DNA from: Obrimoposthia wandeli
Lineage: Eukaryota
Length of the DNA stretch: 64,000 bases
Direction of reading: 5' to 3'
NCBI GenBank assembly: GCA_977020255.1
Contig: CDROCS010000275.1
Location: 186,001-250,000 of the forward strand
Position 1 is the first letter of the stretch, and every line of letters starts with the position of its first letter. The translations under genes and the position numbers were made by a program. Under the pieces are notes generated by a model. The model made no database searches. It was not told the origin of the DNA and saw nothing but the letters and a program-made list of their open reading frames with translations. This document shows positions 55,800 through 56,800 of the stretch, piece after piece.

Positions 55800-56040
55800 T
55801 TTTAGAATCGAGAGAAATAGACGAAGGTCACTAGAACCGTACTATTCAAAAGAAATGTCACGCAAAATGGCGAGAACAGGTTTACAAATGTTAAACGGAA
55901 ACACGACAAAAGATTCTGATCTTGAGAAAGTAGTACGATGTGTATGGTGTAGAGTAAAGTTTAGAAATTGGGAAAACAATGATAACCCAAACAATGAAAC
56001 ATCATAAAAGAGAAGCACCAACATGTCCATTCCTTTTGAA
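55800..56040 (+). other. BIR (IAP repeat) domain with a 1-nt frameshift
   Basis: RRRSL...KMARTGL...VRCVWCRVKFRNWENNDNPNNE then, after the frameshift, HHKREAPTCPFL; matches CxxC-WxxxDxPxxEH-C. Confidence 0.82.
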
Positions 56041-56683
56041 TCTAAGAACTCCAAACGTACCAGAAATTCAAATGGGGAAAGCACCCGATTTTGATAACAG
56101 TGATGAGATTCCAGAAGGAGAAAATCAGCTCTAATAGTAGGCAGAGTGATAACAAATAGCCGAATTGAAGACATATTCGAAGTAATGTGAGAAGTAAACG
56201 AATGTGACGAACAATATCGAGAAGTAACTTTGAAGATCCAAGACTTTAAAAATTGGCAAAAAAGGGACTTTTTGCTATAAAAAAGGATGGTAAAGACGTG
56301 ATTAAATGCCACAAGTGTAAAAAAGAACGAAATATCGACAGATATACTCTTGAGTTGCCTAAGAAAACTTTACATCATGAATTTTGCGAATTTTGTATTT
56401 TTAAAAACAAAATAAAGCAAAAAGAACAGAAAGCCGAATGTATAATCGAATACCAAATCACACGGAGAGAGATTTTGGCTCAACAAGACACACCGGTAGT
56501 GTCATTCGACTATATCCGAAAAAAGCAGAAAGAATCAAAGATTTGGTAGAATTAAAAATAAAAACTACGCGAACCGGATACGGATCAATTTTTGAATTAT
56601 TGAAAGATAAAGATGATAGTACAATTGAAACAAAAGAGAAAGAGTACATAAACGAACTAGAATACGTATTAGAAGATCCGGAA

Positions 56684-56800
56684 TGCGCAGTTTGCATGGT
56701 CAACAAAATAGAAGTCGTCTTTTTACCATGCGGACATGTAAGAACATGTCGGAGATGTGCGAAGGAAATGGTATCATGTCCGATTTGTAGAAGGATAATA
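56684..56800 (+). other. IAP-type C3HC4 RING finger
   Basis: CAVCMVNKIEVVFLPCGHVRTCRRCAKEMVSCPICRRII. Confidence 0.92.

Follow-up and report, generated by a model that had tools for sequence, protein, structure and literature searches.

What does a stretch of DNA encode in which a BIR domain and a RING of the IAP class lie between two retroviral proteases, and could the protein be set free from its precursor? The initial annotation of this locus had claimed a complete IAP between the proteases, to be released by polyprotein processing and to block apoptosis. The window analysed here is a stretch of 64,000 nucleotides (G000:C275:186001-250000) from an AT-rich animal assembly of 1.35 Gb. From position 42920 on it is an LTR element, whose total length is ~29.1 kb when the neighbouring stretch L031 is added, with these features:

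42920-48462, + strand, 5′ LTR of ~5.5 kb, with 38 mismatches to the 3′ LTR over 5533 aligned bases
48471-48488, + strand, primer-binding-site-like motif directly after the LTR end, at the same place in two other copies
49199-51000, + strand, gag region with one CCHC zinc knuckle (50755-50799; Pfam zf-CCHC, E = 1.6e-6)
51686-52940, + strand, ubiquitin-like domain (51686-51850; Pfam E = 0.0085) and Bcl-2-like region (52755-52940; E = 0.09), both weak and below the cut-off
53076-55002, + strand, env, a Monjiviricetes-type fusion glycoprotein in frame with pol, broken in the window copy (three Pfam pieces, E 1e-24 to 1e-30)
55270-55570, + strand, aspartic protease 1 (PR1), DTGS, Asp codon at 55318 (Pfam)
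55696-55809, + strand, N-terminal lead of the IAP module, alignable with the start of free Maverick IAPs
55810-56035, + strand, BIR1, with C-x2-C at 55933-55956, H-x6-C at 56003-56032 and a frameshift at ~55990 (Pfam, fold)
56209-56396, + strand, BIR2, atypical (H-x3-C), broken at ~56230-56250 (alignment)
56490-56605, + strand, UBA-like three-helix domain, frameshift at ~56510 (profile, alignment, fold match)
56675-56836, + strand, IAP-class C3HC4 RING with aromatic tail, then Tyr-Pro, intact in the window copy (Pfam zf-C3HC4_3, E = 8.9e-13)
56918-57205, + strand, aspartic protease 2 (PR2), DTGA, motif at 56960-56977, 29% identical to PR1 (Pfam)
57860-59761, + strand, reverse transcriptase, RNase H and integrase in gypsy order, with stops in the window copy (Pfam)
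61934-62850, + strand, dual-specificity phosphatase with an HCxxGxSR motif, then a second phosphatase-like repeat, in the same polyprotein (Pfam)
beyond the window, L031:1871-8026 (~65871-72026 in extended coordinates), 3′ LTR

A Pfam search of 18 window frames returned, in order, gag knuckle, weak ubiquitin, fusion protein, protease, BIR, RING, protease, RT, RNase H, integrase and phosphatase. With its LTRs, primer-binding site and PR-RT-RH-IN order the element has the characters of Ty3/gypsy, and it is a decayed Burro-like gypsy LTR element with a single polyprotein, gag-env-PR1-IAP-PR2-RT-RH-IN-phosphatase. Both of the two longer copies that were read (frames of 4985 and 4722 aa) contained all window pieces in order. 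One hydrophobic segment (~54736-54800) was found in env by hydropathy; a dUTPase-like stretch between PR and RT gave no Pfam match.

Burro/GYPSM1 elements of planarians are >30 kb long, have very long LTRs and a high copy number, and encode a polyprotein of 4873-5140 aa with an in-frame mononegavirus-like env and ubiquitin-like, BCL2-like and BIR domains, according to the accessible part of Arkhipova and Yushenova (PMC6431247). As far as the accessible accounts describe Burro1/GYPSM1, the present element shares with it a ~5000-aa polyprotein, a gag-CCHC, an in-frame env of mononegavirus type, PR-RT-RH-IN, BIR and RING domains, very long LTRs and a high copy number, and weakly resembles it in the ubiquitin-like and Bcl-2-like domains before env, which here were under the cut-off. 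It was filed as Burro-like and not as Burro1 because it is 29.1 kb and not >30 kb long, has one CCHC knuckle where Burro1 is described with two or three, and gave no match to MATH or ankyrin, both of which Burro1 is described to have. The accessible parts of the Burro1/GYPSM1 accounts, compared by description only, do not mention two proteases, a second BIR, a UBA or phosphatases.

Both outer LTR ends of the window copy are without their last 9-10 bases, including TG...CA (window 42890-42960; L031:7993-8073), and a target-site duplication was not evident; the 3′ end is normal in two other copies. Near 50650, where the window copy is open, two younger copies both carry a stop codon, in frame, after the capsid and before the zinc knuckle, possibly a programmed read-through or a shared lesion. 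Past the integrase (59846-61510) the polyprotein contains ~500 aa of repeated beta-rich domains of no known kind, and past the phosphatases (62859-64000 and L031:1-1640) ~900 aa in which four segments are hydrophobic and the pieces scanned matched nothing in Pfam above the cut-off. Upstream of the element, an innexin in one long frame (41494-42516, - strand) ends ~400 bases from the 5′ LTR, and a second gypsy-like fragment, decayed, lies at 38526-40076 (+ strand), with gag, RT and RNase H-like pieces recognised by eye.

The module between the proteases is BIR-BIR-UBA-RING, the layout of cIAP/XIAP without CARD. It combines a C2HC zinc-binding BIR, an IAP-class C3HC4 RING with aromatic tail and a UBA between the last BIR and the RING, as RING-type IAPs do, and its best PDB sequence matches were cIAP, NAIP, XIAP and DIAP1. 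BIR1 scored 46.7 bits with Pfam in an open natural copy, and its broken half in the window copy was above the cut-off (E = 7.9e-5, 23.5 bits). In a predicted structure the BIR1 fold resembled BIRs of BIRC6, DIAP1 and XIAP (Z 11.5, rmsd 2.5, 87 aligned). Alignment with BIR3 of cIAP1 placed Lys for Gly, Arg for Glu and Asp/Glu for Trp at positions that we take to form the groove; the usual peptide-binding (IBM) groove in BIR1 appears to be only partly kept.

The initial annotation had also listed a further CxxC...CxxC pair at ~56307-56400. The cysteines are present (56301-56396) but do not form a separate pair: they belong to the atypical BIR2, with the pattern C-x2-C-x18-H-x3-C, in which the four zinc ligands vary little or not at all across an alignment of ten rows, one of them a cIAP. 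BIR2 alone matched Pfam weakly (E = 0.017), and the shortened spacing of three residues between its His and last Cys recurs in all clade members. The UBA-like region, absent from the earlier description, aligned with the UBA of cIAP1, and a profile without cellular rows matched the Pfam UBA_BIRC2-3 regions of the cellular IAPs P0008 and P0010 (E 3.6e-6 and 1.4e-5). The best non-BIR fold match was the UBA of XIAP (2kna; Z 5.9, rmsd 3.9, 61 aligned), a modest match, weak alone and not independent because the model's alignment had one cIAP row. The RING was poorly modelled (pLDDT <50), and prediction with no alignment as input gave nothing usable (pLDDT 35).

The module follows the BIR(s)-UBA-RING order of cIAP1/2, XIAP and DIAP and is collinear with BIR3-UBA-RING of cIAP1; it differs from these proteins in having no CARD, an atypical BIR2 and an internal RING, and in forming a separate long-branched clade. 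Baculovirus IAPs are stand-alone genes with two BIRs and a RING. The element resembles them in carrying two BIRs and a RING on a virus-like element and is unlike them in its UBA-like domain and its place in a polyprotein, as judged by layout. An IAP/E3-ligase architecture, baculoviral or cellular, had been proposed: the BIR and RING module stood, and with two BIRs and a UBA it is cIAP/XIAP-like, not baculovirus-like.

The window copy of the IAP is a pseudogene, with four frameshifts and two stops between BIR1 and RING. Frame changes near 55990, 56120, 56230 and 56510 and in-frame stops near 56190 and 56250 contradict the claim of a complete IAP in this copy; the BIR motif described as frameshifted at ~56000, the intact IAP-class RING and the flanking DTG proteases were all confirmed. 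Several natural copies read PR1-BIR1-BIR2-RING-PR2 in one open frame with no repair needed. The frame from BIR1 to RING was open in 7 of the 30 copies of a first set and in 20/45 overall, the 15 copies added to reach 45 coming from a protein search that favoured open frames. The stretch is not a chance arrangement, because all 40 scored copies in the genome matched it at 92% identity or more.

Selection was assessed by column-by-column variant counts in the 30 top-scoring copies, which are simple counts and not a codon model; variants seen in at least three copies (shared) were compared with singletons. The IAP domains (pooled) and both proteases are under purifying selection. For the four IAP domains together ω was 0.22 in shared variants and 0.65 in singletons (Fisher p = 0.004, 30 copies), and for shared variants of BIR2 it was 0.05 (2 amino-acid vs 11 silent, p = 1e-6). 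Shared variants gave 0.05 for PR1, 0.00 for PR2 (0 amino-acid vs 5 silent) and 0.03 for RT. Neither BIR1 (0.51, p = 0.14) nor RING (0.28, p = 0.13) was significantly constrained alone among the 30 copies. Between two subfamilies picked from the tree (17 and 11 of 45 copies), pooled ω was 0.41 (p = 0.007), with 0.09 for the RING and a non-significant 0.68 for BIR1 alone (p = 0.23). Of the 30 copies, 28-30 retained the zinc ligands, all 30 the catalytic Asp of both proteases, the Arg-Phe-His of the RING tail and the Pro behind it, and 29 the Tyr. A BIR search and dN/dS constraint had been named beforehand as tests of the initial annotation; the BIR was found, and pooled dN/dS was below neutral. 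Silent divergence between the subfamilies was 0.18-0.22 in BIR1 and the linkers vs 0.03-0.05 in the proteases and RT, and this ~four-fold excess marks the patch at window 55570-56200 as likely recombined or swapped.

A BIR search of the same genome was dominated by stand-alone ORFs of ~300 and 333 aa. Of 55 loci fetched from this search and from one with a brachiopod cIAP (3 of them fetched twice), 53 encoded an IAP of one or the other Maverick type; the remaining 2 were host-like genes with a single BIR, which read as survivin-like and BIRC6-like. Two high-copy Maverick families, A and B, have the stand-alone IAP directly upstream of the packaging ATPase (e.g. L057:1363-2385, L043:1348-2250; L070-L078). 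Five neighbourhoods, hand-chosen and two of them near-identical, were read over 30 kb, and in 5/5 an A32-type ATPase, an rve integrase and capsid-like frames lay downstream of the IAP. The carriers matched rve and Pox_A32 above the Pfam cut-off; their capsid frames matched at Pfam E = 0.01 and Atlas 0.98 with low recognition. Family A is adjoined by a polymerase B (DNA_pol_B_2, E = 1.5e-12). One family B unit spans 15 kb between inverted repeats of ~590 bp; the family B pieces scanned gave no DNA_pol_B_2 match.

The family A IAP aligned end to end with the retroelement module (30% over 376 aa, E = 4e-39). Its start matches that of the module after PR1, and only four residues follow its RING tail motif; the family B IAP has lost most of BIR2. 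The Maverick IAP domains are under purifying selection too, with ω of 0.19 in shared variants of family A vs 0.90 (p = 5e-5; 24 of 34 loci used).

IAP RINGs such as those of cIAP/XIAP need a short free C-terminal tail to dimerise, and Tyr-Pro is a classical retropepsin cleavage site. In the precursor the RING is internal, and the translated chain runs on beyond it. We consider it probable that in working copies the element's proteases free the module, which then acts as an anti-apoptotic E3 ligase. The single membrane-like segment of env, between env and PR1, would place PR1-IAP-PR2-RT on the cytosolic side, where cuts after PR1 and before PR2 would release the module. The candidate C-terminal cut, read by eye, is at Tyr-Pro directly after the RING or at a second site ~20 residues on, and would give the RING a near-free C-terminus for dimerisation. 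The freed protein would ubiquitylate caspases or caspase activators and the expressing cell would be kept from dying; as part of the polyprotein, the inhibitor would be dosed according to how strongly the element itself is expressed. Support for release by polyprotein processing is only indirect: free relatives start and stop at places matching the module ends, finishing 4-5 residues past the same RING tail motif, and the proteases are conserved at their catalytic Asp and constrained, as given above.

A freed module might instead have its main role as a ubiquitin ligase whose targets belong to immune or stress signalling, or are proteins of the element itself, with BIR1 binding no caspase. The partly lost groove residues of BIR1, the shortened His-Cys spacing of BIR2 in the whole clade and the tighter constraint on RING, UBA and BIR2 than on BIR1 would all suit such a role, as would the ubiquitin-like domain and MAP-kinase-type phosphatase of the same polyprotein. 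The accessible part of a citing paper names caspase-mediated apoptosis for Burro1 (PMC13465017), and the Bcl-2-like region in the polyprotein is a weak hint in the same direction; we regard action mainly on other targets as unlikely. That the retroviral proteases do not free the IAP at all, and that it acts while still in a precursor tethered to the membrane or is made from an RNA that is spliced or starts internally, would fit with cleavage sites that were read by eye only; it is quite improbable given that one long ORF contains the IAP in frame and continues past the RING, and that every free relative ends no more than ~20 residues after the RING. A module carried merely as a passenger, its reading frame kept only so that pol is made, could account for the fast divergence of BIR1 and the flanking linkers but is very improbable and largely refuted already by the selection data, namely the BIR2 shared variants, the kept zinc ligands and the constraint on the same domains in Mavericks.

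The proteases that would free the anti-apoptotic ligase are not peculiar to it. A search with the RING-to-RT region returned 349 long polyproteins, and no BIR was found among the matches listed (best 120 of the 349). Seventeen polyproteins, picked partly for their env family, were examined: 8/17 had two proteases between env and RT, 9/17 had one more after the integrase, and an IAP was found in none (17/17). Fourteen of the 17 grouped with the Burro-like element on an RT-RNase H tree (100/99), on which the two-protease state was scattered and needed 3-4 changes. The flanking pair is not IAP-specific, because the slot in relatives is filled by C2H2 fingers or by coiled-coil-like or short stretches; on these comparisons the extra proteases are a lineage trait, not a device special to the IAP. 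Such a slot would be a general route for polyprotein retroelements to take on cargo. In a broad clade of gypsy polyproteins that have env in frame (P0221-P0295), aspartic proteases number two to three and the cargo includes C2H2 fingers, ankyrins and Ig domains.

The origin of the IAP was traced by searches and trees. Among 1.84 billion proteins four full- or near-full-length relatives of the module were found (P0001, P0002, P0005, P0036). The retroelement and Maverick IAPs and these four relatives fell on one side of a branch, opposite 45 of 119 usable cellular IAPs (SH-aLRT 99); the same split against 18 cellular IAPs under a mixture model had 100/100, with ten long or duplicate rows dropped. 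The trees have long branches and biased composition, and their set includes no planarian host IAP and no baculovirus IAP. At the level of sequence they establish the kinship of the Burro-like polyprotein IAP with the free Maverick IAPs. Word-indexed homolog searches gave nothing, or only two mammalian cIAPs, and no relative of the module was found in the viral contigs searched. A host donor gene was sought in three genome searches, with the BIR family (150 of 12110 candidates scored), P0001 (88 of 20172) and a brachiopod cIAP (72 of 17240). All three returned element copies and none found a host gene of cIAP type, though a gene split by introns would escape them.

We tentatively suggest, at somewhat less than even confidence, that the Burro-like IAP was exchanged with a Maverick of the same host and not taken straight from a host gene, with one mobile IAP clade existing free in Mavericks and as cargo in the retroelement slot. 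Lee et al. 2026 reportedly call B-IAP host-derived. If the IAP did pass between Mavericks and the retroelement, the captured-host-gene story would become one of gene traffic between two unrelated endogenous virus-like classes, and this Maverick link is the part worth following.

According to the accessible part of PMC13465017, which cites Lee et al. (Dev Cell 2026), Burro1 has gained an IAP with BIR and RING ('B-IAP') by which planarian stem cells are shielded from apoptosis mediated by caspases, and the idea of the initial annotation is to that extent already published for this sister element. What is already in print is the core claim, that Burro1's IAP reportedly makes a transposon beneficial to the planarian that hosts it; the present genome contributes a second family, which expands independently and whose copies give population-level evidence for selection on the IAP. 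BURRO1 RNAi did not rescue the smedwi-2 phenotype, according to the accessible text of PMC8532177. The accessible part of PMC8502044 reports IAP homologs in adintoviruses, and the Mavericks described here likewise carry an IAP, in two families of one genome; unlike in that account, as far as it is accessible, the Maverick IAP belongs to the same clade as a retroelement polyprotein domain. In the literature searched, whose scope left out most subscription papers including Lee et al. 2026, no paper linked a Burro IAP to Mavericks and none described the two-protease slot. As far as searched, the additions beyond print are the Maverick IAP of the same clade and the two-protease slot with other cargo.

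The phosphatase may have moved between Maverick and retroelement in the same way as proposed for the IAP. The Maverick and retroelement phosphatases are 31% identical over 131 aa, that of the retroelement being active-looking, and sequence similarity weakly suggests a shared origin. A search aimed at host dual-specificity phosphatases returned long-frame matches that looked like parts of elements. The Maverick phosphatase (L065:1387-2121) is without the HCxxGxxR motif and is likely a pseudophosphatase. A Maverick derivative of ~14 kb (L064-L066, L067-L069) has 4-kb inverted repeats, which hold IAP and phosphatase twice, and its central part is flipped between two copies that are 99.7% identical.
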